A stretch of 64,000 nt of DNA from an uncultured Candidatus Saccharibacteria bacterium. GTDB taxonomy: Bacteria > Patescibacteriota > Minisyncoccia > Phycocordibacterales > GWA1-40-21. The translations under genes were made by a program, and so were the position numbers. Under the pieces are notes generated by a model, which was not told the DNA's origin, made no database searches, and saw only the letters and a program-made list of their open reading frames with translations. The number at the start of each line of letters is the position of its first letter. The first letter of the stretch is position 1. This document shows, in pieces, positions 3,378-62,575 of this stretch. The stretch is from NCBI GenBank assembly GCA_964567825.1, contig CAZMNX010000001.1, positions 34,775-98,774 of the forward strand. Direction: 5' to 3'.

Positions 3378-3911
3378 CTATTTATACTCTGGGGCAGACT
3401 CTTTTATACCACTTTTATGGTTAGCCTGTCTAGCCAAAGCGTATAAAAGACTAGACAGACGATTTAGATAAGATAAGGTGTGCTCCCCGACTTTTACCTT
3501 CCCCTCTTCCGAAACGCCAACAACGCGGCGCTCAGCGCGGCGGGCTAATGTTCTAGCAAAATCAAAATGAGCCGCCAATTCGGTACCACCCGAAACAAAA
3601 AAGGTTTTAATTGGTGGTAATTCTTTTTCAATACTATCTACAATCTTTTCAATATCCTTAACTTTTTCTTCGACGATTTTTTTATCAGCCCCAGCCAATT
3701 CGGCCTGAATCATAAATAAATTTTGTTGAGCATTATTTATTATTTCTGATAATACCAAATCCCGCTGGGCCAGAACCTTACAAATTCCCAAAAAAGAATT
3801 TGTTTCATCTAAAGTTCCAAGCGCCTCAGCGATCGCTGAGCTCTTAGAAATTCTTTGGTCACAACCAAAAGTCTTAGTCGTGCCTTTATCGCCTTTTCTG
3901 GTATATAACAT
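3378..3911 (-). CDS. ATP:cob(I)alamin adenosyltransferase, PduO type
   Basis: N-terminal MLYTRKGDKGTT motif characteristic of PduO-type adenosyltransferase. Confidence 0.8.
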   Translation of the reverse strand: MLYTRKGDKGTTKTFGCDQRISKSSAIAEALGTLDETNSFLGICKVLAQRDLVLSEIINNAQQNLFMIQAELAGADKKIVEEKVKDIEKIVDSIEKELPPIKTFFVSGGTELAAHFDFARTLARRAERRVVGVSEEGKVKVGEHTLSYLNRLSSLLYALARQANHKSGIKESAPEYK

Positions 3912-3934
3912 AGGATAATTATACTCCTTTACTG

Positions 3935-4018
3935 TGCACGGGAGAAGATTTGAACTTCCAAGCCCTTGCGGGCGCTACCACCTCAAGGTAGTGCGTCTAC
4001 CAGTTTCGCCACCCGTGC
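3935..4018 (-). tRNA. tRNA-Leu (GAG), type II with long variable arm
   Basis: Acceptor GCACGGG/CCCGTGC, anticodon stem CTACC/GGTAG with loop TTGAGGT, long variable arm, T-loop TTCAAAT. Confidence 0.75.
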
Positions 4019-4079
4019 AATGCTGGTAATATAGCTTAAAATTAAACAAAAATACAGTGTCGCCACTGTATTTTTGTAA

Positions 4080-4481
4080 TTATTTAGTTTCAGTTGGAGC
4101 TTCAGTTGTTTCGCTTTTAGGTTCTACTGGCTCCTTAGCATTAATGATATTTTTCATCTTACGACGAATTTCCTTGGCCGCTTTTTCACGAACATTATAT
4201 AGTTTTGAACGGCGGGCTTTAGAATTTCTAACAATTTCAATTTTTTCGATATTGGGAGAAAATAAAGGGAAAATTCTTTCGACTCCAACGCCGTCTATTA
4301 CTTTTCTGACGGTCAAAGTACCACCCGCTTCATCACCGTGTTTACGAGCAATGATCATTCCTTCAAAAATCTGAACACGAGACTTATCGCCTTCCACAAT
4401 TTTCTGGTGAACGCGAACAGTATCGCTCGCTTTGAGGTTTAATTTCTTTCTTTCTTCGATGTTTACTGATGAAATTTTCAT
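4080..4481 (-). CDS. rplS: 50S ribosomal protein L19
   Basis: [15 protein letters not shown] and overall L19 pattern. Confidence 0.9.
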
Positions 4482-4519
4482 TAGGCTAATCTAACACAAT
4501 TAAGCTTTTTTCGCAAATT

Positions 4520-5257
4520 TTACTGAACCCTAAAAAACTCCACCGCTTTTTGAAAGTCCGACGGATAAGGAGCGACGATTTTCATTACTTTTCCCTTACC
4601 GTCATCGGTTGGTACTTCAAATTCAATCGCATAAGCGTGTAGGGCCAAACGATTAATGAAAGAATCAATTGGTGACTTGCGATATACCGCGTATTGTTTA
4701 TCTCCAATGATGCCGTGCCCAGTATCGGCAAAATGAACGCGTAACTGGTGCGTTCGCCCGGTTTGCGGATTGGCTTCAATTAACGAAATCTTCTCCTTTC
4801 GAGCTAAGGTTTTATAGTGAGTAATTGCTTCTTTGGTTTCGCCACGAACCGCCTTGCCGGTGGCGCGTTTACGAAAATCGCTTTTATTACGACCAATTGG
4901 CAGATTAATAATTCCCTCATCGTAGCGCACGTCACCATAAACTACGGCATGGTAAAACTTTTCGATCTCCCTTCTAACAAATTGCTTCTTTAAAAAATCA
5001 TAGGTTGCCTGGTTTTTCGCCACCAGAACAATACCCGATGTCTCGCGATCAATCCGATGGACAATTCCCCATCTTTTTATTACTTCACCAATACCGAGCT
5101 TAAGTGGCTCACCCACATTTTCAAGCTTAGGATATTTTTCTTTGATCCAATCAGTTAAAGCTAGCTCTTTAGTTCGACCATCAGTGTGCACAACCAAACC
5201 CGACGGTTTATTAACCGCCAGCAAATTTTTATCTTCATATAGAATTGGAACCTCCAT
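4520..5257 (-). CDS. RluA-family 23S rRNA/tRNA pseudouridine synthase
   Basis: HRIDRETSGIVLVAK catalytic Asp motif; 245 aa. Confidence 0.85.
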   Translation of the reverse strand: MEVPILYEDKNLLAVNKPSGLVVHTDGRTKELALTDWIKEKYPKLENVGEPLKLGIGEVIKRWGIVHRIDRETSGIVLVAKNQATYDFLKKQFVRREIEKFYHAVVYGDVRYDEGIINLPIGRNKSDFRKRATGKAVRGETKEAITHYKTLARKEKISLIEANPQTGRTHQLRVHFADTGHGIIGDKQYAVYRKSPIDSFINRLALHAYAIEFEVPTDDGKGKVMKIVAPYPSDFQKAVEFFRVQ

Positions 5258-5258
5258 G

Positions 5259-5331
5259 TGGGCGATACAGGACTCGAACCTGTGACATCTTCAGTGTAAA
5301 TGAAGCGCTCTACCAACTGAGCTAATCGCCC
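5259..5331 (-). tRNA. tRNA-Val (TAC)
   Basis: GGGCGATTAGCTCAGTTGGTAGAGCGC..., anticodon loop TTTACAC, T-arm CAGGTTCGAGTCCTG. Confidence 0.8.
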
Positions 5332-5346
5332 GTTTCTCCCAGACTG

Positions 5347-5418
5347 TGCCCCCGGTAGGAATCGAACCTACATCAATGCCTTAGAAGAGCACTGCTCGAT
5401 CCATTGAGCTACGAGGGC
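5347..5418 (-). tRNA. tRNA-Arg (TCT)
   Basis: Acceptor GCCCTCG/CGGGGGC, D-arm GCTC-AATGGATC-GAGC, anticodon loop CTTCTAA, T-arm GTAGG-TTCGATT-CCTAC. Confidence 0.75.
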
Positions 5419-5449
5419 AAAACCAAGGGACCACCAGAATATAACAGCT

Positions 5450-5788
5450 TTAGAGAGATGGGTCAACTATTCTGGGGCCGTCCTTTATTTTTTGAAAGTC
5501 GGCCTGCCTAGCCTCGAACAATAACAAGGCTGATTGTAATTTTTTAAGATCTATCGTTTTCGCTGCCGTCGGTTCCGTGATCGGCTCAGATGCTAAATAG
5601 CCGCCACCGATTTCATTACTTAAATAAATTTTCCAAGCATAAAAAGAAATGAGAAACATTATTACCGTAAAAACACAGACGATTATTTTCCAATCTCTGA
5701 CGTAAGATCGATTCGAATACACCGCCGCTTCAGTTTTTACTGATTTGGGGTGTCGCCTGAAAAACTTTTTAAAAGTAATCTTTTTCAT
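5450..5788 (-). CDS. small membrane protein, last gene of the pilus operon
   Basis: One TM helix; position downstream of the pilM/N/O-like genes. Confidence 0.3.
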   Translation of the reverse strand: MKKITFKKFFRRHPKSVKTEAAVYSNRSYVRDWKIIVCVFTVIMFLISFYAWKIYLSNEIGGGYLASEPITEPTAAKTIDLKKLQSALLLFEARQADFQKIKDGPRIVDPSL

Positions 5789-5794
5789 TATTAT

Positions 5795-6355
5795 TTAATT
5801 TTTAAGTTTACCGACAGAAAAATCTAAATCCGCCGACCAGATTCGTTCTCCTTTTGTTGAGCCCAAATCAAAACTATCGTTAAGCGAAACGCTATTTACA
5901 ACCACTACTCTTGGTAAATTTTCAACTGTTTGCAAAAAACGATAAACATTCTCCCAACGCCCAGAGAAATTGACCCTTAACCGAAGAAGATTAGCGGTAT
6001 CTGAAGCGCCCAGCTCGCCAGAATTCTCATAACCAACGAAACCAATTGTTTGAATAACGCCACTGGTTTTGGCCAGTGCTTCAAAATAGCTAATAAAGTC
6101 AGCTGTTTCCCCATTACCACTACCGACAAAGTACTGATCTAGTTTTTGTCGCTCGGCGACCGAACTCGCAATCGAATCTCTTAGGTTCAAATCTCGTTCC
6201 CTCTCGGCTGATGAAATCATCAGTTGTTTAACTTTATCGTTAATACCAACAATCTTGCCGACCAAAAGATTAGAGAAAATTATCGTCAGTGTAATTGTTA
6301 AAACAAAAAAGATTATAACCAGAATAAATATTTTTTTTGAATAATTTAACTTCAT
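5795..6355 (-). CDS. type IV pilus assembly PilO-like protein
   Basis: N-terminal TM, 186 aa, directly downstream of the PilM and PilN-like genes with a 4-nt overlap. Confidence 0.4.
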   Translation of the reverse strand: MKLNYSKKIFILVIIFFVLTITLTIIFSNLLVGKIVGINDKVKQLMISSAERERDLNLRDSIASSVAERQKLDQYFVGSGNGETADFISYFEALAKTSGVIQTIGFVGYENSGELGASDTANLLRLRVNFSGRWENVYRFLQTVENLPRVVVVNSVSLNDSFDLGSTKGERIWSADLDFSVGKLKN

Positions 6356-6897
6356 ATCTCGGTTTTAATATTTATCGTAAAAGGAATATTCGAATCTCTA
6401 ACTAAATCAGAAATTGGCGAGTCAACGACTGAATAGCCAGCTCTGGTTTTTAAATCATTAATAAATGTAACCAAGCCTTGGCGATTTTTCGATATGCCAC
6501 TAACCAAAAACTGGATCTGGTTCTTTTTTACTAAACTAAACGATAGTCGATTGATCTGAACATTAGCATTCCGACTAGTAATAATCTTGGCGAAGTTGGT
6601 TGAGGCGATGGTGTTGTTCCGGCCATAAGCCTCAACCATTTTAATCTCGTCCAATGTTTGGGTTACGATCCTCAACGCACTTTCACCAATATTCTCTTTA
6701 TTTTCAACGTTAATAACCGTCTTAAATTGATCGCCAACCAGCTTGTCTTTTTGACTGACAGAAGCGTAGTAAGGAATAACGTAAGCCAAAAAATAGACTG
6801 AAAGTAAGGCGGCCATTAAAATAACCGCGGTTCCAAGTCGGAGAAAATACTCTGTTCTAATTGTCTTTTTTTGTTTTTCGGTTATTAGATTGGCCAT
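6352..6897 (-). CDS. type IV pilus assembly PilN-like protein
   Basis: Single N-terminal TM, 181 aa, immediately after pilM. Confidence 0.45.
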   Translation of the reverse strand: MANLITEKQKKTIRTEYFLRLGTAVILMAALLSVYFLAYVIPYYASVSQKDKLVGDQFKTVINVENKENIGESALRIVTQTLDEIKMVEAYGRNNTIASTNFAKIITSRNANVQINRLSFSLVKKNQIQFLVSGISKNRQGLVTFINDLKTRAGYSVVDSPISDLVRDSNIPFTINIKTEI

Positions 6898-6900
6898 AAA

Positions 6901-7965
6901 TTAAGATAAACTAAGACCATTCACCGCTGCATAATTTAATGAATCCAGATAACTTAGCTCCGGTGTGTATTGCTCTAATTTAAAGTTATTTATCCAAACA
7001 TTAGCTAAGTCAACCTTTAAATTCAAATTTAGAGACAGGTATTCTGGTAAACCAACAATCGTAGCTTCTTGACCACATAAAATGATCCTATCTACTTCAC
7101 CGACAACATCTTCACGTTCGTTACAGTAAAGGATAAACTTATACAACTCATCTTTGATGGCAGAAATAGTATTAATTAAATAAGAAAAAACTTCCATATT
7201 TTCCTCGTGGCTGTTATAAAGTTTCTCTTTCTTTAGCTTCGAGGCTTCAGCCGGGGAAATCTTAAAATATTTACACAAAGAATCGGTAAACGCCGAACTA
7301 CCAAAATTAATCGAGGAGGTTTGATAGACGACACCGTTTACAACTAAAGATAAGATGATATTAGACTCTTTAATGTTTACCAAAACGATAACCTGCCGAT
7401 TTCCCTCTTTAATTACCGCCCGGGCAACATTGTTGGCTTCACCACCAAAAAAAATAGGGGTTAGGCCCGCCGATTCAAAAACTGCCTGCCAGTCCTCAAT
7501 AAATTTAAGCGGCGAGGCTGTAACAACAACATCTAGTCCGCTTTGTGATTGATTTTTAGGAACAATATCGAAATCAAAAACTGCCTCCTTAGAAGAAAGG
7601 GGAATATTTTCCTCAAGCTTAAAATCTAAAATATCGTGTATCTCCTTAACTTCGAGCTCCGGTAAATGGGTTTTAAAAATATAAGTTTTTTCTTCTGGAA
7701 TAGAAAATCGGACGCAATTAACATTGGTTCTCTGTCTAATTTCCTTTAGCGCCTTAATTACTGAGTCTCTCTTAATAATTTCACTATGAATAATTGACCC
7801 TGCCTCAAAATCAACTTGGCCATACTTTTCTGGCAATAGGCCCTCAGCTCTATTTTTAGTTGAAAGAAAGCAAAAAGCATTATCGACCAATTCCAAAGAG
7901 ACCGCGGGCATGGCTAAAAATTTCGGGGGGGTAAAAAACTTTGAATAATTTGCTTTATGGGCCAT
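6901..7965 (-). CDS. pilM: type IV pilus assembly ATPase-like protein PilM
   Basis: Actin-like ATPase fold motifs (VIVLVNIKESNIILSLVVNGVVYQTSSINFGSSAFTD). The start was moved to the ATG at 7963-7965 (MAHKANYSKFF) because the 8046 ORF start overlaps the upstream DedA gene, and a TATAAT lies about 20 nt upstream. Confidence 0.7.
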   Translation of the reverse strand: MAHKANYSKFFTPPKFLAMPAVSLELVDNAFCFLSTKNRAEGLLPEKYGQVDFEAGSIIHSEIIKRDSVIKALKEIRQRTNVNCVRFSIPEEKTYIFKTHLPELEVKEIHDILDFKLEENIPLSSKEAVFDFDIVPKNQSQSGLDVVVTASPLKFIEDWQAVFESAGLTPIFFGGEANNVARAVIKEGNRQVIVLVNIKESNIILSLVVNGVVYQTSSINFGSSAFTDSLCKYFKISPAEASKLKKEKLYNSHEENMEVFSYLINTISAIKDELYKFILYCNEREDVVGEVDRIILCGQEATIVGLPEYLSLNLNLKVDLANVWINNFKLEQYTPELSYLDSLNYAAVNGLSLS

Positions 7966-7990
7966 AGTATTTCTGGCCTTATTATAGCAT

Positions 7991-8932: not shown

Positions 8933-9310
8933 TTATTTATTTTTATCAATATAACTTTGTAAAATTATCGCCGCTGCTGAAGCATCGATCATATCATTTT
9001 CCCCAGTAATCTGGCTTGCCTGAATTGAAGTCATAAATTCTGGCTCGAAAATAACTTTTAGGCCGATTAATTCCAGCTGTTTTCTAAAACCATCGATCTT
9101 CCACATGATCTCATTAATTTTCCCATGAAAATCACGCGATTCGCCCATCACCACTACTTCCACATTATTTTTAATACACAAATTAGCTATATTTTTCAAT
9201 AAATCACTATCGTTGGTTAAAACAATTTGAGGAAAGGCAATCCTTCCTTCATCATCAGACATAGCAATCCCCACTCTTTTTTCGCCAAAATCAATTCCTA
9301 GATATCGCAT
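8933..9310 (-). CDS. ruvX: Holliday junction resolvase-like protein RuvX/YqgF
   Basis: MRYLGIDFGEKRVGIAMSD N-terminus. Confidence 0.85.
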   Translation of the reverse strand: MRYLGIDFGEKRVGIAMSDDEGRIAFPQIVLTNDSDLLKNIANLCIKNNVEVVVMGESRDFHGKINEIMWKIDGFRKQLELIGLKVIFEPEFMTSIQASQITGENDMIDASAAAIILQSYIDKNK

Positions 9311-9424: not shown

Positions 9425-10333
9425 TCAACCCTGCCGGTCGAGGATCTGCCGGAGCCGCTCGAGCATCTGCTTGGCTGCTTCCTCCATGGCAATCTCGGAG
9501 TCCTCGGCCGGAATGTGAACAACCTTCCACCCCTTGCGCAGCCCGAGGTTGTTGTGCCCATCAGCCTTCGGAACCGTGTCCCGCACGCCACGCCAGAAGA
9601 TCTGACGTGCCATCGAAACTTGTTCCGTGACGTAACGGTTGCGCGTAACAGCCGCCTCAATCAGACACCTCGCTTCGGCTTCAGATGAAGCCCTGACCTG
9701 ATGGACCGGCTTGAGCTCCGGCACCCGACTGAGGCGCTCGAGGACCACGCCGACACCCAACACGACCGGAGAAACGATTTCCCCGATGATGGTCTCCTCA
9801 CGTTCAAGGCTAACCAGAGGAAACCTTTCCCCCTCGACCTGCGCCGCACTCACCTCCGGCCCGGACATCGCTCGGCGCAAATCGCCGAAGAAGGTCAGCG
9901 CCAAGTGATCAGGCGTCTCAAACAAAGGTGTCGACGAAGCTCGACCACTCGGAGAAACCACCAACCAGCCGTCGCGCAGGGCGATGTCGTTCCAATTCCC
10001 GGGGAAGGTATGCAATACCCCCTGCCAGAAAAGATCGTTCATCATCACGCGAATAGCGTCGATTTCTGTCTGCCGCTCCTGGTGGCTGACCAAGGCCTCA
10101 AAACACGGGCGTTCCCGCCGATAGGTCTGCGTGAAGCTTTCCTCCTCGTCGAGCATGAGCAAGCGAAGCCGCTCGCCTTCACAGTAGAAGTTGCGGATCA
10201 TGGGATCCATCATCGTCCCCACCGAAAGCTCGCCGGGCTGATACTCCCGGTCTGAACCGCCGGTATCGACCACAACCGCAGTGTTGTTAAAGATCCGACG
10301 CGCAGACTCGAACACAGACAACTTGGTAGTCAT
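9425..10333 (-). CDS. GC-rich cassette gene A: unknown 302-aa protein with internal repeat, paralog of the 31093..31947 product
   Basis: About 60% GC ORF in a <40% GC background, with an SD (GAGGGAAA) and a low-GC TTGACA-containing upstream region. Its N-terminus aligns with the 31.9-kb gene (TMMDPMIRNFYCEG vs VLTDPMGRAFYHYG), and the motif LFW.GV..(n)LGLR.GW occurs twice. Confidence 0.5.
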   Translation of the reverse strand: MTTKLSVFESARRIFNNTAVVVDTGGSDREYQPGELSVGTMMDPMIRNFYCEGERLRLLMLDEEESFTQTYRRERPCFEALVSHQERQTEIDAIRVMMNDLFWQGVLHTFPGNWNDIALRDGWLVVSPSGRASSTPLFETPDHLALTFFGDLRRAMSGPEVSAAQVEGERFPLVSLEREETIIGEIVSPVVLGVGVVLERLSRVPELKPVHQVRASSEAEARCLIEAAVTRNRYVTEQVSMARQIFWRGVRDTVPKADGHNNLGLRKGWKVVHIPAEDSEIAMEEAAKQMLERLRQILDRQG

Positions 10334-11415: not shown

Positions 11416-11892
11416 TTACCAGCCACCGCCCTGCAACCGCCTGGCCACAGTTCTCGGCTTTTCGATGAAGTCGCTCATATCGCTGCCCTGGTAAAAGGGG
11501 CGATACTGATGTTCCTTCATCCAGTCAGCCAAGGCAACGCACCGATTCGCCATACCCATGACGATGGCGTGCGAAGACGGAACGGCTGGTGCGCTCCATC
11601 CTCGACGCTCTTGCCACCACCGCACAATGCGTGAGCGAGCCTCGTGCGTCCAAACCGCGACGTTGCGTTCCCACTGGAGGCGATCGTGAATCTGATCGGC
11701 CGCTTGCCGAAAAAGATTCACAAGCTCTTCTGAGCTGAGTGTCTTCCACTCTTGTCCGCCGTGTATGGGTACCCCCTGAAAGAGGGCCTCGTAACGCCTG
11801 ACGATGGGGCCGGCAAACGAAATGTTATTCGTGTCCGCGCTGCTCACCAACTCAATCCCCCCACCCGTCTTCTTGTAACGAATTATCTTCAC
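11416..11892 (-). CDS. GC-rich cassette gene B: unknown 158-aa protein (GTG start, SD AGGAGA)
   Basis: GC-rich ORF; the GTG start is preceded by ACAGGAGATTCACC; no recognizable motif. Confidence 0.4.
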   Translation of the reverse strand: MKIIRYKKTGGGIELVSSADTNNISFAGPIVRRYEALFQGVPIHGGQEWKTLSSEELVNLFRQAADQIHDRLQWERNVAVWTHEARSRIVRWWQERRGWSAPAVPSSHAIVMGMANRCVALADWMKEHQYRPFYQGSDMSDFIEKPRTVARRLQGGGW

Positions 11893-29785: not shown

Positions 29786-30220
29786 TTACTCTGTCTGGTA
29801 TTCCTCGATGATTGTAATGAACGAATACCGCTTGACCCCATAGGCGTAACCACGCATGATGTCCCTCATCCCCCGATACTCTTCGCGATAGCCGAAGTTG
29901 AACGAGAAACGATTGTACCACCAATAGTAGTACCAGCCTTCAGTCTGCACGAACTCGCGCCAAGCCTGCGGGTTGAACTGGACGAGTTTTGCACTGTAGC
30001 CCCGCCCCGCTGAAGTTATTGCCACTCGCATAGGCCGAGTGTCAATTCGTGTCACCCACACCCAAGGGGCCGACACGTGCCATCCGCCTCGTTCTTGTAA
30101 CCACATCTTGCCATTGAACCAATTCCTGGCAAGGCCAACCTGAGTGAGGTCGGTGTAGTTCAGAAAAGACAGATAGAAAAGCAGGACAAAGGCCAGAACG
30201 GCCACAATCTTCCTTTTCAT
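29786..30220 (-). CDS. GC-rich cassette C gene 2: SPFH/band-7-like small membrane protein
   Basis: Start MKRKIVAVLAF is a TM helix; GWHVSAPWVWVTRIDTRPMRVAI and AKLVQFNPQ resemble the N-terminal half of an SPFH domain; the ATG overlaps the upstream stop (ATGA). Confidence 0.4.
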   Translation of the reverse strand: MKRKIVAVLAFVLLFYLSFLNYTDLTQVGLARNWFNGKMWLQERGGWHVSAPWVWVTRIDTRPMRVAITSAGRGYSAKLVQFNPQAWREFVQTEGWYYYWWYNRFSFNFGYREEYRGMRDIMRGYAYGVKRYSFITIIEEYQTE

Positions 30221-30768
30221 TTTCCACTTCCGACCGAGGCGGTAGGCACACCAGCCTGACTCGGCGCAAGCTCTTTGCCGACGATGAGAAACGGGCAATC
30301 CCGCCCAGCTTCACTGTCAAACGCGTAGCACCGAAGAATTTCCGCCAGGTCGTTACGGCTGTCTCCAGCCTTCCGACCATGCCAGCGCAGAAAAACGTCG
30401 AGGCCCTTCGGATCAAACTGCACAAGCTTGGCATTCAGTACCCGGCTGCTTATGCTGCCGACACCCCCACCACCCGACGACGTTCCGTTGAGCCCGCCAG
30501 TGATCTGCACCTGAATTGGGCGTAGATCGATCGCGTGCACGCTGTAATGGAACGGATTGCGGATGAAGTAGCCGGTGCGATCAAGATGCTCGATCTCTCC
30601 GGTGTACTTGTTGAAGGTGAACGGAAATTCGTAGTTGTCCACGAACGTCACGAACACGACCCGGAAGAACAGCAAAGCGATGAGCGCAACGCCCAACGAA
30701 ATGCCGCCCCAGACCAGGACGCCCGACAGGCTGATGCGAAAACGAAACTTGCTCGATGTATCATTCAT
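30217..30768 (-). CDS. GC-rich cassette C gene 1: SPFH/band-7-like small membrane protein
   Basis: Start MNDTSS preceded by SD AGAGG; TM helix; GYFIRNPFHYSVHAIDLRPIQVQI and NAKLVQFDPKG are stomatin/HflK-like. Confidence 0.4.
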   Translation of the reverse strand: MNDTSSKFRFRISLSGVLVWGGISLGVALIALLFFRVVFVTFVDNYEFPFTFNKYTGEIEHLDRTGYFIRNPFHYSVHAIDLRPIQVQITGGLNGTSSGGGGVGSISSRVLNAKLVQFDPKGLDVFLRWHGRKAGDSRNDLAEILRCYAFDSEAGRDCPFLIVGKELAPSQAGVPTASVGSGK

Positions 30769-30868
30769 CTCGAACCTCTTAGTTTTGACGAACACACAGA
30801 TCTCTTGGCGAAATACCAAGTTTAATCTCCGTCGCAAGGTTATCACACAATAGACTATTTGTCAACTG

Positions 30869-30941
30869 TCCGCCCAGTTGGAATCGAACCAACGACCTTC
30901 TCCTTAAAAGGGAGCTGCTCTACCAGCTGAGCTATGGGCGG
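30869..30941 (-). tRNA. tRNA-Lys (TTT)
   Basis: Acceptor CCGCCCA/TGGGCGG, D-arm GCTC-AGCTGGTA-GAGC, anticodon loop CTTTTAA, T-arm GTTGG-TTCGATT-CCAAC; the 3' end faces cassette C. Confidence 0.75.
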
Positions 30942-31008: not shown

Positions 31009-31052
31009 AGAGGCCGGTGGTGGGAATCGAACCCACACACCGCCTCCCATAT
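31009..31052 (-). terminator. tRNA T-arm-like hairpin plus T6: terminator of cassette D, or a tRNA 3' remnant
   Basis: On the minus strand GGCGGTGTGTGGG-TTCGATT-CCCACCACCGGCC is followed by TCTTTTTTGA. It has a T-loop-like TTCGATTCC, but no complementary 5' acceptor strand could be found. Confidence 0.4.
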
Positions 31053-31092: not shown

Positions 31093-31947
31093 TCAGCCAA
31101 CGCCGACCATAACCTCCTGTGGCGGGAACGACGTCAGCATCCAACCCGCCCGGAGGCCAAGTGAGGACGTCTGCTCGCCATCGAGCATCTTCTCGACCAC
31201 CCCCGCCCAGAACAGATCGGCGGCCAAGTCACTGCGAGTTCGCGCGCGTTCCATGGCGACCAGAACCTTCCTGACGTAACCGATGGAGTGCGAAGCCACG
31301 AAGGCATTCATACCCGTCTTGTCGTTCATGAAGGGAATCTCGGCTTTGGCATCGTCCCGAATCTGAGACGAAACGTTCCAGAGTGCCCGCAGAGCTGGAT
31401 CATCGATCGTCGCCATTTCGGCTTCGCCCTCTTCGAGTGGCGAATCCACGTCAAACGAAGCTTCGGCCGCCGTTCCGCTGTCGCCCTTCAGAGCTGCAGT
31501 CACCTCATCCAGAAAGTTCGGATGGGGATTCTTCACGTCACCACCGAACTGACCGAATAGCCCGTCCTTCTTGGCGAACACCCGGAACCCAGAGCAGATC
31601 ACTCCCTGGTCGAAGATGCCGCGCATGGCCGGCAACTCGCGCAAAATGCATTCCCAAGCGAAACGCATCAGCAGGTTGCCGTCCTCCCTCGCCCGCTGCG
31701 CGCTCTGAATCCGCCTGCCGAACTCGCCGAGATTGGGCAGACTGATCAGGCCGCCGGACAGCGACTCCATCACTTTCTCGCGACCGTAATGGTAGAACGC
31801 CCGCCCCATGGGATCGGTCAGGACACCGATCTCCTCGTAACCCCCTGGGGCCTCTGTTCTATTGACAGTGCAGATCTCCGACGGGACGTGCCCGTTCAAA
31901 ATCTCACCCACCAAAACGAACGCCGACTTACTCTTGCTTGTGCTCAT
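31093..31947 (-). CDS. GC-rich cassette gene D: unknown protein, paralog of the 9425..10333 product
   Basis: About 60% GC; ATG at 31945-31947 preceded by GAAAGG; shares DPMGRAFYHYG and ADLFWAGVV..(n)..LGLRAGW motifs with cassette A. Confidence 0.5.
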   Translation of the reverse strand: MSTSKSKSAFVLVGEILNGHVPSEICTVNRTEAPGGYEEIGVLTDPMGRAFYHYGREKVMESLSGGLISLPNLGEFGRRIQSAQRAREDGNLLMRFAWECILRELPAMRGIFDQGVICSGFRVFAKKDGLFGQFGGDVKNPHPNFLDEVTAALKGDSGTAAEASFDVDSPLEEGEAEMATIDDPALRALWNVSSQIRDDAKAEIPFMNDKTGMNAFVASHSIGYVRKVLVAMERARTRSDLAADLFWAGVVEKMLDGEQTSSLGLRAGWMLTSFPPQEVMVGVG

Positions 31948-54555: not shown

Positions 54556-55056
54556 CTAATACACGCCGAGAATTGGTAAAACTCCGAGAAAAACGATCAG
54601 AGAAATATGAACAATTTCTCTAAAAATTCTTCGTTTCAAGTTTTGGGGCTTATAGGAAACGACGATACTGGCTCTAACCAGGGTAAGTGCCGTATTGACC
54701 CCAAGAAAAACTAGGGAAATATAGACGGCCGAAATGAAAGAAAGCAAGAGGCCAATCGAGTTTATAAAAAAACCATAAGCGATAGTAAAGCTAATAAAAC
54801 CCAACTTTGTCCAACGATGAGAATCGGAATAAACCGCTTCTTTTATTCTGGCTAGCAAGCCACACATAAAAAATGGGACAGCCAAAACTAACTGTAAAGT
54901 AAAAAATGGATTGCTAGAAATTATTTCTGGTTTAATTGTAGCGACTAAACCAAAAAGGGTGATGCAGATACCGAGCAAGGTGACATCGATCAGGTTTCGA
55001 GTGTCGGTTTTAAATCTACTTCTCTCCTTCTTTTTTAAAGCATCGTCTTCTGGCAT
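54556..55056 (-). CDS. hypothetical membrane protein (4 TM)
   Basis: ORF with hydrophobic helices. Confidence 0.35.
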   Translation of the reverse strand: MPEDDALKKKERSRFKTDTRNLIDVTLLGICITLFGLVATIKPEIISSNPFFTLQLVLAVPFFMCGLLARIKEAVYSDSHRWTKLGFISFTIAYGFFINSIGLLLSFISAVYISLVFLGVNTALTLVRASIVVSYKPQNLKRRIFREIVHISLIVFLGVLPILGVY

Positions 55057-55059
55057 GGT

Positions 55060-55413
55060 TTAGCTTTGTAAATCTAAATCCTCGAATGGAGTAGCAAGAC
55101 CTTTTGGTTTAAAATCTGGCGCCACCTCTAGGGCCGCCACCATCGTCCTCCCATTTTCGATTTGTCTTTGCATTAATAAAATAGACTCGTTTAGCTCATG
55201 AATTGCCTTCTCCTGTTCTATTATAAGCTGATTGACGGTCTCGATCGCCTCAAGTCTAGATATCTCATGAATATCGTCAATACCGTCATCACAAGTATCG
55301 ATGGTTACCGTATCACCAGAATAAAGAACCTTAACGCTACCTCTCTCACTATTAGTCCTAAAAATGGCCATTTTATTTACAAATTTTTCTCCTGTTGGTG
55401 CGGCTTCGTTCAT
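55060..55413 (-). CDS. hypothetical protein (117 aa, acidic)
   Basis: ORF only. Confidence 0.3.
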   Translation of the reverse strand: MNEAAPTGEKFVNKMAIFRTNSERGSVKVLYSGDTVTIDTCDDGIDDIHEISRLEAIETVNQLIIEQEKAIHELNESILLMQRQIENGRTMVAALEVAPDFKPKGLATPFEDLDLQS

Positions 55414-55490
55414 TTTTATTTAAAATTATTCTAATAAATCAATTTTTATAACTCCATTCTACTCTCCCTGCTTTATTATGCAAATTTTAA

Positions 55491-55510
55491 AGAGCTCGAC
55501 CGAAGTCGAG
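55491..55510 (-). terminator. hairpin GCTCGAC-CGAAGT-CGAGC downstream of cassette E
   Basis: Inverted repeat followed on the minus strand by CTTTAAAATTT. Confidence 0.35.
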
Positions 55511-55583
55511 CCCTGTTGATAGTGGTTCCGGACATATCAGGTCCGTTGCAGAGTAATCTGCGTAGAAGTTAGGAAAAGGACCG

Positions 55584-56405
55584 CTAGTCCTTCATGAGGA
55601 TCTCGAGCGCCGCCGCCCAATCCTTGGTGCCGTCCGCGTTCATCGGCGCGTGCATCATGACCGTCTTCGCCCCATCGATCTTCACCGAGAAGGACGAGTA
55701 GTAGTCAAATGCCGCCGAGAACGGATCCGCGTGATGGTTCAAGTCGGTGACCACCGCAACAAACTTGGCTCCACGATGCGCCGCCTCGACCATGAGGAGA
55801 ACACCGTAGGGAACGAGCTCGCCGAGCTTGAAGTTGCTGCCCATTGTCTTGGAAGACATCGGGAGATGCAAGTCCGTGAGAACGACGTCGAACTTCTCGC
55901 TGCCGAGAGTCTTCATCGCTTCCTCGTAGCCCGTCGCCGTCGTGAGCTTCTGTCCGGCCAGGCCAGACTTCGCGCTCACGATGTGTGTGGCCGTATCGTC
56001 GATGACGAGGATGCGGAGAGCATCAGGGCGGAGAGGAACTGCTTCCTCAACCACTTTGGCCACCGGAACTTCCAGCGGTTGGAGTCTCGCACGAATCCCG
56101 TTGATGACATCAACGAGACCAACCAGGATATTCACCGTGGGGATGATCAAGCAGTTCTCGGGCAACCGCAAGCGCTCCTCACGATTCGACAGCCTGAGGC
56201 AGGCGTACGACTTCTCCTGGCTGTACCCACGCTCAATCTCACGCACGTCTGTGAAGATGACGAGATCCGCCTCGTCCACCGTTTCCACGAACACATGCGA
56301 AGTTTCGTTGCCGACGATCGGCAAGACCTGCTTGATCGAGCGTGGGAGGGGTCCGTCCTCCATCGCGAGACGAATTCGAACCGGTCGGTTTGTTGTTGTG
56401 CTCAT
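55584..56405 (-). CDS. GC-rich cassette E gene 2: unknown N-terminal domain plus C-terminal receiver (REC)-like domain
   Basis: ILVIDDTATHIVSAKSG...KFDVVLTDLHLPM...VAVVTD resembles CheY-like DD / D-phosphoacceptor / T spacing; start ATG at 56403-56405 with SD AAAGGAAAAG. Confidence 0.45.
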   Translation of the reverse strand: MSTTTNRPVRIRLAMEDGPLPRSIKQVLPIVGNETSHVFVETVDEADLVIFTDVREIERGYSQEKSYACLRLSNREERLRLPENCLIIPTVNILVGLVDVINGIRARLQPLEVPVAKVVEEAVPLRPDALRILVIDDTATHIVSAKSGLAGQKLTTATGYEEAMKTLGSEKFDVVLTDLHLPMSSKTMGSNFKLGELVPYGVLLMVEAAHRGAKFVAVVTDLNHHADPFSAAFDYYSSFSVKIDGAKTVMMHAPMNADGTKDWAAALEILMKD

Positions 56406-56557
56406 TGGCACTTTTCCTTTCTGTTGTTGTAAAGATCTTTTCCGTTTCGTCCTTTTGGACTCATCAGGTAAAGTACTCACTTTACTACGGAGGGGCATTT
56501 ACTATGGCGCCCCAGATGCCATGAAAGTTTCTTAGCACTTACAACAGATGAAGGTCC

Positions 56558-56994
56558 CTAGTCCCGCTTCGGATCGGCCCAGAAGATCGCGTAGGCGATC
56601 ATTTCCGGGGTGACGTTTGTCACCTGGCCGATCTCATCGAAGTACCACGGAGTGGCCCGATTCAGGTCCATACCATCGGTACAGACGATGAGACCGAGCT
56701 TCTGCCGACTCTCCTGGCTCATGTCCAGGGCATTCCCCGCGATCATGAGCTTCCAGCCGGTGGCCTGCAGGAAATTCTGCAGATCGCCAGCCTTGATCGG
56801 AACGACCAGCCGGCCGTCCACGTACCGAACGCACCGCTCCTGAGGAACGATGACGTCGGCGGCCGCCTGCGCCTCGCCGCATCCCGGACAGGGCTTAGCT
56901 CCGCCCACCGAGACGCGGACCAGAGCCGCCGCCAGAAACAAGCCGACCCCGACCACCGCAATCACCCACAGGGTATCGCAAATGCGCTTCATCA
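56558..56994 (-). CDS. GC-rich cassette E gene 1: membrane-anchored hypothetical protein
   Basis: MMKRICDTLWVIAVVGVGLFLAAALV TM; SD AAGGGAGAG before the ATG; GC-rich. Confidence 0.4.
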
Positions 56995-57131
56995 TGACTT
57001 TCTCTCCCTTTATTTCAATCACCTATTGATCGCGTTGTGCGACCCGGGGTAGGTGAAACCCCACTGTCTAGTATGATAGCATACTTTAGGCTAAAAGTCA
57101 AGCACTTTTTAAGGCCCTAGGGAGGGAGTGT

Positions 57132-57824
57132 TTATAGGGCTAAGATAAAGCGTTCTAGAGCCACCGCGAAGTCTATTTCGCCACGATGAGCCTCGTGATA
57201 CATATTAAAAAGCTGTGAGGACATCTTTTTGAGCTTTTTTGAATCATAGTTTCGAAATTGCTGATCAGAAAGCATCTTTTTAACTTTCCAAAAGAAAATG
57301 CCGTGCACCTCTTCCGATGGCACTTTTTCCGCTAAAGCATCTTGATACAAAGTCCACAATTCCTTTTTATTTTTATCGCCTAAAGCATTAGCAAATTCAA
57401 AAAAATCAATCTTCTCCCCTTTTAAGGCTAGGGCCTCTTTTTTATTTAATTTTTTTTCTGGTTTTACAAATTCCTCAATCTTATTATTTTCACTCTCATA
57501 TTTCTTAAATTTCTCCAGTTCTTTTTTATTTAGCTTACCCTCTAAAAACACAAAAAAGTTTGGCGAGGTGCTGATATCCTTTATTTTTCCCAACAAAACT
57601 TCCCCGGTCTCTTCTTCATCACAAAGGTGATCAGCAAAAACTAAAGTTTTAGCAAAAAACAAACCCTGACTGGCGATCAATTCATCCAGCTTACTTTCTG
57701 AAAAATTCTCGACGTTTAATTTAAAAAAACCAGCATCCGCATGCTTCTTTTTAGCGGCCACAATATTCTTTTGGGCCACATTTCGGGCCTTGGCCGTGTC
57801 GGTACCGTGGAATAAGAAAAACAT
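57132..57824 (-). CDS. holA: DNA polymerase III delta subunit-like (HolA)
   Basis: N-terminal FFLFHGTD (y-l-y-G-D type motif), C-terminal GEIDFAVALERFIL, directly downstream of polA. Confidence 0.5.
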   Translation of the reverse strand: MFFLFHGTDTAKARNVAQKNIVAAKKKHADAGFFKLNVENFSESKLDELIASQGLFFAKTLVFADHLCDEEETGEVLLGKIKDISTSPNFFVFLEGKLNKKELEKFKKYESENNKIEEFVKPEKKLNKKEALALKGEKIDFFEFANALGDKNKKELWTLYQDALAEKVPSEEVHGIFFWKVKKMLSDQQFRNYDSKKLKKMSSQLFNMYHEAHRGEIDFAVALERFILAL

Positions 57825-62236: not shown

Positions 62237-62575
62237 TCACCGTTGCCGTGGTGGTAATTGGGGCAACAGCCCCTGGAACTCCTGGCCCGATGGGGACTGA
62301 CTGACACCAGCCTGAGACCCGCCACCACTCGTTCCCCAACTCCAGTTCCCGCTGGTGTGCCAGGTACCACCATTGTATGGCACAACCGCCGCGCCATTGC
62401 CCGTGCTGCGGGCTTTGTTGTGATAGGTTGTCGTTTCCTTGATCGTACCATCGGGCAGGGTCACCCGCTCGTAGGTGGTTTCCCCGCTGTTTTCGGATTC
62501 TGACACCTGTGGTGCCGTCATGCACCCGCCCGCCAGCACGAGCCCAATCATCGCAAAGAACACTGTCGTTTTCAT
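62237..62575 (-). CDS. GC-rich cassette F: small lipoprotein (lipobox LAGGC), Gly/Ser/Thr/Trp-rich
   Basis: MKTTVFFAMIGLVLAGGC signal/lipobox; SD AGGGGA; GC-rich. Confidence 0.5.
   Translation of the reverse strand: MKTTVFFAMIGLVLAGGCMTAPQVSESENSGETTYERVTLPDGTIKETTTYHNKARSTGNGAAVVPYNGGTWHTSGNWSWGTSGGGSQAGVSQSPSGQEFQGLLPQLPPRQR

Follow-up and report, generated by a model that had tools for sequence, protein, structure and literature searches.

In bacterial prophage operons, clustered hammerhead ribozymes flank single genes, and processing of the polycistronic RNA has been shown in vitro (Perreault et al. 2011, PLoS Comput Biol, PMC3088659). Here we describe a comparable arrangement in a 64-kb stretch of DNA from an uncultured Candidatus Saccharibacteria bacterium (contig CAZMNX010000001.1 of GenBank assembly GCA_964567825.1; the whole stretch is referred to as the window), namely a GC-rich cassette of two genes, geneA and geneB, with a hammerhead in the spacer between them. 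In our reading, to which we assign a probability of roughly 60%, the cassette forms an accessory operon, complete in itself, within a Patescibacteria (Paceibacteria-type) genome; its transcript would be processed by the hammerhead into two mRNAs, and it encodes an atypical receiver that has no output domain.

The likeness to the prophage clusters is threefold. A consensus core lies in spacers of co-oriented genes and the flanked genes vary; one related locus, L011, has four hammerheads, each carried by a spacer before a gene; and the proposed role is the same, conversion of a polycistronic RNA into single-gene mRNAs. Unlike the prophage clusters, the present one resides on a Patescibacteria chromosome with no integrase or phage genes in view. 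Its ribozyme, a type III variant, has a short hairpin as stem I; Rfam scans at gathering thresholds reported no copy of it in the window, L011 or L014, and it is tied to one conserved downstream family and has a conserved hairpin leader on its 5' side. It is the first concrete example found in this analysis of hammerheads punctuating operons of the Candidate Phyla Radiation (CPR)/Patescibacteria, and in the searchable literature we found no prior report of hammerheads in Patescibacteria.

Two further kinds of systems invite comparison. Engineered insulators of the RiboJ type place a hammerhead and a hairpin in the 5' untranslated region, where they strip the variable upstream RNA and leave a defined structured 5' end. 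The cassette ribozyme, unlike these, is natural, and any insulating effect is presumed; because its leader hairpin is located on the 5' side of the hammerhead, unlike in RiboJ-type insulators, the hairpin would stay with the upstream fragment. The geneB protein resembles CheY, DivK, PilG/PilH, FrzZ and the ABL-plus-receiver part of RcsC in having the (βα)5 fold, an acidic pocket, an acceptor Asp and no output domain. The RcsC pair is also alike in that a degenerate α/β domain precedes the receiver, and the NCBIfam RcsC model aligns across both geneB domains. Unlike single or tandem output-less receivers, geneB has a His for the Lys of β5, an invariant β3-α3 loop longer by about 12 residues, HHxD and KDW motifs, and a second domain half unseen by REC profiles. 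Pseudo-receivers and atypical receivers include FrzS, AmiR-type and aspartate-less receivers. As in pseudo-receivers, the N-terminal domain of geneB has the fold without a conserved acidic pocket, and the C-terminal domain is without one of the five signature residues; the latter is not an aspartate-less receiver, because both the acceptor Asp and the acidic residue are retained.

The predicted ribozyme and the proposed operon

Judged by its sequence, the spacer at 56491-56441 (minus strand) is a complete, previously unannotated type III hammerhead that is predicted to be self-cleaving. The catalytic core matches the consensus perfectly: CUGAUGA/GAA with G10.1-C11.1, A15.1-U16.1 and an A (non-G) at position 17. 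All three helices are present, with loops closing stems I and II and stem III left open (Table 1), and the minimum free energy fold of a 57-nt RNA is exactly this three-way junction (-15.2 kcal/mol, z -3.4). The Rfam model Hammerhead_1 (RF00163) gives the spacer an E-value of 2e-4 in a 201-nt search. A pattern-plus-pairing search recovered this architecture from seven other loci, where it lies upstream of a geneB homologue; all three stems showed compensatory changes. The resulting covariance model, R1, scores 91 bits in the window and added four copies (one each in L014 and L050 and another two in L011), so that 12 copies are present in nine loci. In the alignment of these 12 copies, 12 of the 16 pairs covary by double changes, and 96.9% of the cells are paired versus 33-48% in slid controls. 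The four copies added by R1 show the same pairing behaviour as the first eight. Run with filters off, R1 found no second hammerhead in the window, and scans at Rfam gathering thresholds found no other known ribozyme class near the homologues in 11 loci. The same hammerhead subtype, with GUGUGU as loop I, is also present in two viral contigs from IMG/VR, L061 (2944-2989, minus strand) and L062 (2945-3014, minus strand), one of which is GC-rich (0.57) and the other AT-rich (0.36).

Recognition of the ribozyme changes the reading of geneB itself. The preliminary description had taken the ribozyme for the coding N-terminus of geneB; the 304-aa open reading frame (ORF) starting at 56498 is overlong, because its first 31 codons are the hammerhead. 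The true start is the ATG at 56405, which gives 273 aa. An AAGGA-type ribosome-binding site lies about 10 nt before this ATG, the 273-aa reading is 100% identical to the gene call P0001 of the Joint Genome Institute (JGI), and the N-termini of the aligned homologues agree with it. NCBI assembly GCA_041443065.1 (a 2470-bp contig) annotates geneB as 304 aa and so translates the hammerhead (window 56406-56498), rendering the ribozyme as MPLRSKVSTLPDESKRTKRK; a matching pseudo-peptide arises over the L011 copies. In other words, a ribozyme is presented as protein in a public gene call, and such mis-annotations may be common.

The leader hairpin next to the ribozyme is GGGGC-loop-GCCCC in the window and GRGRC-loop-GYCYC across the loci, with 100% of positions paired and two of the five pairs covarying. 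A candidate pseudoknot joins the leader with an upstream AUGG; its helix is invariant and so gives no covariation signal. Other hammerhead copies carry unrelated hairpins at the leader position. After cleavage, the leader hairpin would cap the 3' end of the upstream mRNA. The leader and hammerhead form a block of about 100 nt that is 82-100% identical between the window (56441-56545) and L011 (5780-5904); the coding DNA on its flanks is 50-85% identical, the upstream genes being unrelated (about 50% at the nucleotide level) and the downstream ones 60-85% identical. Such a pattern of sequence similarity suggests either that the ribozyme module has recently been exchanged or converted by a related copy, or that constraint reaches beyond the known core.

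A recurrent gene order accompanies the ribozyme. Every hammerhead locus with enough upstream sequence has a small GC-rich exported or membrane protein, the hammerhead and a geneB homologue, in this order. The upstream protein is a 145-aa transmembrane (TM) protein in the window, a 116-aa protein 38% identical to geneA in L050, a lipoprotein in L003 and L014 (118 and 123 aa), a 142-aa signal-peptide protein in L051 and an 86-aa TM peptide in L011. Between the several groups that these proteins form, similarity is slight or undetectable. Most hammerhead copies lie directly upstream of the geneB homologue; the copy in L017 is about 1 kb upstream, with small ORFs between. The most extended case is L011, where all four spacers of a five-gene array (3824-7978) contain a hammerhead (at 4324, 4788, 5361 and 5836). 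The composition of this array is mixed: it consists of a GC-rich 159-aa ORF, a 122-aa ORF that is richer in AT and closes with a histidine-triad-like HFHLHLL motif, a 101-aa ORF, the 86-aa TM peptide and the geneB homologue, and it is followed by a 330-aa protein the C-terminus of which resembles an ordinary receiver.

The pairing of a small TM protein with a receiver gene, pointed out in the preliminary description, is real for the window: geneA (GC 0.63) has one N-terminal TM helix (residues ~8-30; maximum 2.5 on the KD19, 19-residue Kyte-Doolittle, scale), a CPGC motif and a soluble domain of about 100 aa. Among 5.8 billion proteins its sole match was geneA itself, and one distant homologue (38% over 85 aa) was found in L050, upstream of a geneB homologue. 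geneA was rejected as a conserved partner of geneB, there being no geneA family and the upstream genes elsewhere being different.

Based on these features, the proposed operon would consist of a host-like promoter, geneA, the structured leader, the hammerhead, geneB and a terminator hairpin. The promoter candidate, TTGACT/TATCAT, is the best promoter-like match in 55000-57400 (10 of 12 matches plus TG) and lies about 80 nt 5' of the geneA ATG, within AT-rich host-like sequence. The terminator-like hairpin has 9 bp followed by a U-rich tail, and a consensus scan omitted it because its T-run is interrupted. Transcription would produce a dicistronic RNA that the hammerhead cuts after A56486. The geneA mRNA would then end in a stable hairpin with a 2',3'-cyclic phosphate, and the geneB mRNA would begin with a 5'-OH and the folded ribozyme body, 80 nt before the ATG. 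Cleavage might in this way uncouple the mRNA stability and translation of the conserved geneB from the variable upstream gene. The geneB protein would be cytoplasmic and composed of a pseudo-receiver and an atypical receiver with no output domain. It would act most likely on its cellular target via protein-protein contacts, switched at a remodelled Asp/His pocket by modification or metal binding, and is most likely not a DNA-binding regulator.

Several points weigh against this picture. On Rfam's own scale the hammerhead, at 25.5 bits, falls short of the curated gathering threshold of 34. The first eight hammerhead sequences were chosen by a pairing filter and the four later copies were aligned to the resulting model; the covariation statistics of the first eight are inflated because the filter that selected them required pairing. 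The ribozyme is not obligatory for geneB, because only about a quarter of the family loci have one (9 of 36 unique geneB loci); in others, L001 and L005 for example, geneB stands alone without a hammerhead. geneB lacks the β5 Lys with which bona fide receivers bind the phosphoryl group. Every step, from co-transcription and cleavage to phosphorylation, is a prediction. Finally, the operon model leaves the persistent GC excess of the whole family unexplained.

The GC excess

The preliminary description of a GC-rich two-gene cassette is borne out. GC content is 0.578 at 55584-57022 versus 0.406 in the whole window, and in 500-nt windows the region 55.5-57.1 kb stands out as a sharp island (0.53-0.61 versus about 0.34-0.45 on either side) filled by two co-oriented minus-strand ORFs, geneA and geneB. 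GC at third codon positions (GC3) is 0.81 in geneA and 0.76 in geneB (overall GC of geneB 0.585) versus 0.36-0.49 in eight neighbour genes, holA and polA included; the median for genes of the window is about 0.38. The earlier view that the module was "dropped" between membrane-protein genes and holA/polA did not hold up. The geneB family is Patescibacteria-wide, is always GC-richer than its host and occupies the same Liv-type transporter neighbourhood in related genomes. Homologues are GC-richer than their flanks in all 35 unique loci (median +0.11, range +0.02 to +0.22; above +0.10 in 22 of them), and their GC3 is mostly 0.5-0.8 versus 0.25-0.5 in neighbouring genes.

Two processes may lie behind this excess. 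Copies might be imported time and again from a GC-rich pool that has not been seen, or a force specific to the gene, for example selection for mRNA stability or structure, or biased gene conversion, might maintain the composition in place. We regard maintenance in place as somewhat unlikely. Supporting it is the observation that the excess persists in 35 of 35 loci despite protein identities of 40-70%, and that genomes with neighbour genes 62-86% identical to those of the window all hold geneB GC3 at 0.67-0.76. No mechanism for such a force is known, however, and a few copies (L015, L017 and L023) are nearly ameliorated. Translational selection was rejected as the cause because the ribosomal-protein genes of the window (L19 and S20) have a GC3 of 0.29. 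An overlapping antisense gene (55650-56432, plus strand) was rejected as well, with 5-14 stops in AT-richer homologues; this long antisense frame is uninterrupted solely in copies with high GC3, as a non-conserved by-product of that composition.

Shared foreign origin fits better than a force acting in place because unrelated ORFans of the window show the same bias and GC-type amino-acid usage. Five further GC-rich mini-islands (Table 1) have a GC3 of 0.58-0.74 where it was computed, and all five are equipped with separate promoters close to the TTGACA/TATAAT consensus and with strong terminator hairpins. In amino-acid usage they match a GC-rich genome (K 3.9% versus 8.8%, R 7.6% versus 3.7%). 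Both GC-rich genes that were checked for relatives, geneA and a 302-aa ORF, are ORFans; weak paralogues occur among the mini-island ORFs (a 302/284-aa pair and a 144/183-aa TM pair). No hammerhead was found in any of the five mini-islands. The window's other GC-rich genes were rejected as co-travellers of geneB, none of them being present within ±6 kb of geneB homologues elsewhere. A family 5-20 GC points above its AT-rich hosts over 35 loci, accompanied in the same genome by GC-rich ORFan mini-operons, suggests either that Patescibacteria draw on a hidden reservoir of GC-rich genes or that some as yet unrecognised force keeps the composition in place.

The receiver protein and its family

An AlphaFold2 (AF2) model of geneB was built on 42 homologues (alignment A1, 42 sequences). 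It has a predicted local distance difference test score (pLDDT) of 90 and a predicted template modelling score (pTM) of 0.81, and comprises two α/β domains (residues 10-108 and 132-272) connected by a linker of low confidence. Because the model shows two such domains, what had been described as an unknown N-terminal domain is a degenerate receiver-like one. Its conservation in alignment A1 is limited to A47, D48, L49, F52, E59, Y68 and P83; the acceptor-equivalent position is variable and a conserved acidic pocket is lacking.

The C-terminal domain has the (βα)5 flavodoxin-like receiver fold in the model. By Pfam, Response_reg (PF00072) matches geneB with 20.5 bits against a gathering threshold of 30.2, over profile positions 1-53 of 111 (β1-β3), and in NCBIfam, PHROGs, PADLOC and PDB sequence searches the matches are likewise confined to receiver β1-β3. 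In other words, the CheY-like receiver of the preliminary description stands by its fold and not by the Pfam threshold or the β5 Lys, and the profile check it had proposed does return REC, below threshold and over half of the domain. The residues it had named are correct: the acidic pair of ILVIDD, the acceptor Asp of LTDLHLPM and the β4 Thr of VVTD. D138 and D179 are invariant in the 42 sequences and D137 is mostly D or E; T221, at the end of strand 216-221, is present in at least 90%. The family profile places D179 on the acceptor Asp of the RcsC and RpfC receivers (E 5e-7).

The remainder of the domain departs from this pattern. Instead of the β5 Lys of the REC K-P motif, strand 247-253 ends in H253-A-P, with H253 in at least 90% of the sequences; the sole conserved Lys of the domain is K262, nine residues past H253, in the pre-α5 loop, and forms a K262-D-W264 motif just before α5. 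The β3-α3 loop, P183-M-S-S ... F193. L G ... V P Y201 G, has about 12 extra residues and hardly varies, and the β4-α4 loop reads T221-D222-x-x-H225-H226-x-D228-P. H225, H226, D228 and H253 make up an invariant or near-invariant His/Asp cluster, which was not seen in the families returned by Pfam, NCBIfam, PADLOC and PDB sequence searches. By receiver topology, these atypical features would sit on the loops that form the phosphorylation pocket. Since the β5 Lys is replaced by His and a His/Asp cluster occupies the active-site loops, classical phospho-signalling by geneB is not assured; the absence of the Lys means that the protein may escape phosphorylation altogether.

As the preliminary description stated, no DNA-binding or enzymatic output domain is recognised in geneB, and the window has no histidine kinase: a regular-expression scan of its 64 kb found no combination of H-box, N-box and G-box motifs. 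There is also no HisKA or HATPase_c domain within ±8 kb of the geneB homologue in L001, L003 and L005, long contigs with precomputed Pfam annotation. Its summary of the cassette as a stand-alone signalling module of foreign composition survives as far as composition, fold and the lack of output domain and kinase are concerned; it overlooked the ribozyme, the nature of the N-terminal domain, the missing Lys and the spread of the family. It is possible, though in our view unlikely, that geneB is an ordinary orphan response regulator, phosphorylated at D179 by a kinase encoded elsewhere, with geneA perhaps serving as an accessory membrane sensor. This would be in line with the REC fold, with conservation of the acidic pair, acceptor Asp and β4 Thr, and with the fact that about 40% of the homologues have a precomputed PF00072 match and carry the JGI label 'CheY-like'. 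It is at odds with the near-invariant His in place of the β5 Lys, with the second domain half that REC profiles leave unmatched and with the lack of a kinase in the window or near the gene in the three annotated contigs; moreover, geneA is an ORFan, and other genomes have different upstream partners.

The same residues raise a different possibility, which we consider doubtful to about the same degree, that the C-terminal domain is a receiver scaffold turned into a metal-dependent enzyme, such as a phosphatase or hydrolase, or into a metal-binding module. D138, D179, D222, H225, H226, D228 and H253 are invariant or near-invariant on the loops of β1, β3, β4 and β5, stand-alone homologues have an NHHxHP motif, and the family, with its 354 representatives at E≤1e-10, is both sizeable and conserved yet has no matching Pfam family of its own. 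Nonetheless, receivers are the only structural neighbours found, Pfam, NCBIfam and PADLOC searches gave no match to an enzyme family, and the side-chain positions are deduced from topology. Membership in a defence system was rejected, the PADLOC match being a chance-level REC.

Returning to the atypical output-less receiver of the operon reading, its relatives are numerous. A search of 5.8 billion proteins yielded at least 149 full-length clusters of about 270 aa at 90% identity, the few named members of which belong to Taylorbacteria, Wolfebacteria and Parcubacteria/Paceibacterota. All 20 loci in species-representative genomes are labelled Patescibacteria except for three metagenome-assembled genomes tagged only 'bacterium', and a metagenome scan added 33 further loci; the homologue contigs include some of 550-745 kb. 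An exhaustive HMMER search with the C-terminal domain gave 950 representatives at E≤1e-3, of which 354 reach ≤1e-10 and 33 reach ≤1e-30. Many of these relatives stand alone (140-200 aa; the single named example is from Candidatus Sungbacteria), have D...D...P, TDxNHHxHP, HAP and KDW in common and likewise match the Pfam REC model in the first half only. The family is a large, uncharacterised, CPR-centred branch of the receiver superfamily. Its remodelled, His-rich active site and the lack of a kinase in view make it relevant to signalling in ultra-small symbionts, which have few two-component genes.

It is tempting to go further and suggest that the hammerhead and leader block is the junction of an undescribed gene-cassette system of Patescibacteria, in which GC-rich accessory genes are shuffled from operon to operon by recombination at near-identical ribozyme modules and re-supplied from a hidden GC-rich replicon that Paceibacteria have in common. 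We hold this to be improbable. The genes of such a system would include the variable exported protein and the conserved receiver-scaffold protein with its His-rich, possibly catalytic pocket, and re-supply from the hidden replicon would keep the composition non-host. If it were true, the ribozyme would give each cassette expression independent of its landing site.

Another reading is a single, recent horizontal acquisition of the cassette from a GC-rich donor (organism or phage), or a chimeric assembly, with no lasting role in this lineage. It would fit the GC-genome-like composition and amino-acid usage of the cassette and the ORFan status of geneA and another GC-rich window gene, but it is very improbable given at least 35 distinct loci with geneB homologues (all Patescibacteria where labelled, the 550-745 kb contigs included), the shared Liv-type neighbourhood in related genomes, island borders that coincide with a host-type promoter and terminator, the lack of flanking repeats and integrase, and the lack of matches in IMG/VR, INPHARED (GenBank phages) and PLSDB plasmids, which also led us to reject a phage or plasmid origin of geneB. 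Transposition-type direct or inverted repeats flanking the island were not found beyond chance, and 52-60 kb has no integrase or other mobility ORFs. A transposon or integrative element was rejected for lack of evidence (no target-site duplication, terminal inverted repeats or integrase); atypical composition is the sole prophage or genomic-island feature found at the cassette.

Features and neighbourhood of the locus

Table 1. Window coordinates of the cassette, the parts of its ribozyme and the other GC-rich islands
Feature	Position	Strand	Remarks
Sigma-70-type promoter of cassette (predicted)	57073..57101	-	TTGACT, 17 nt, TATCAT + TG extension
geneA	56558..56995	-	145-aa ORFan, TM helix
Leader with hairpin	56492..56545	-	directly 5' of ribozyme; conserved in 6 loci
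Type III hammerhead ribozyme (predicted)	56441..56491	-	core, covariation, fold
Stem III, 5' strand	56491-56487	-	UCCGU
A17	56486	-	A; predicted cleavage between 56486 and 56485
Stem I hairpin	56485-56468	-	GUAAAGU-GAGU-ACUUUAC
Core CUGAUGA	56467-56461	-	CUGAUGA
Stem II	56460-56449	-	GUCC-AAAA-GGAC
Core GAA	56448-56446	-	GAA
Stem III, 3' strand	56445-56441	-	ACGGA
geneB	55584..56405	-	stop codon included; 273-aa tandem-receiver protein
geneB N-terminal domain, aa 8-108	56082..56384	-	degenerate receiver-like (flavodoxin-like) fold
geneB C-terminal domain, aa 125-273	55587..56033	-	atypical receiver
Terminator-like hairpin (predicted)	55482..55513	-	GGGCUCGAC-UUCG-GUCGAGCUC then UUUAAAAUUU, by direct sequence reading
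GC-rich mini-island	9425-10333	-	no Pfam family
GC-rich mini-island	11416-11892	-	no Pfam family
GC-rich mini-island	29786-30768	-	no Pfam family
GC-rich mini-island	31093-31947	-	no Pfam family
GC-rich mini-island	62237-62575	-	no Pfam family

Genomes closely related to that of the window are represented by L003, L014 and L045, in which the genes for a Liv-type amino-acid ATP-binding cassette (ABC) transporter (permease, ATPase and binding protein) and the TrmB-like genes are 62-86% identical to those of the window. In all three, geneB shares this neighbourhood, its exact position being different. Overall identity of geneB to the window copy is 52-57% in L003 and L014, and the match is split in L045. 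At about 33000-54000 the window has an unusually long alternation of genes for TrmB-like helix-turn-helix regulators and Liv-type binding proteins (about 7-8 of each) with ABC ATPase and permease genes interspersed, and the expanded cluster is also present in L003 and L014.

Next to one of the GC-rich mini-islands there is a tRNA-like T-arm/acceptor fragment at 31012-31044 (minus strand), GGCGGUGUGUGGGUUCGAUUCCCACCACCGGCC then U6, located between the GC-rich gene 31093-31947 and tRNA-Lys (30868-30941). Its Rfam matches, to the tmRNA T-arm and mascRNA, are weak; it may be a remnant of an integration site or a tRNA-like terminator.

Homologues of geneB elsewhere have varied company. In L018 a GC-rich stand-alone paralogue of the C-terminal domain (173 aa; 3446-3967, minus strand) lies 2 kb from the full-length gene and has TDxDHHxD and KNW motifs and a PF00072 score of 31.3 bits, and L012 (5202-5381, minus strand) carries a 61-aa fragment of a second geneB copy. 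No chemotaxis, pilus or kinase partner consistently adjoins the homologues. Directly 3' of the homologue in L008 (7418-8101) and L010 (1424-2110) is the gene for a GC-rich protein of 227 aa that carries the C-terminal domain of the RNA polymerase alpha subunit (PF03118, E 1.7e-17). In L019 (147-4310) the homologue lies about 1-4 kb from distant homologues of three window genes, those at 6352-6897 and 6901-7965 (24-30% identical, type IV pilus PilN/PilM-type by eye) and at 8933-9310 (51% identical); this is a single case and a possible functional lead.

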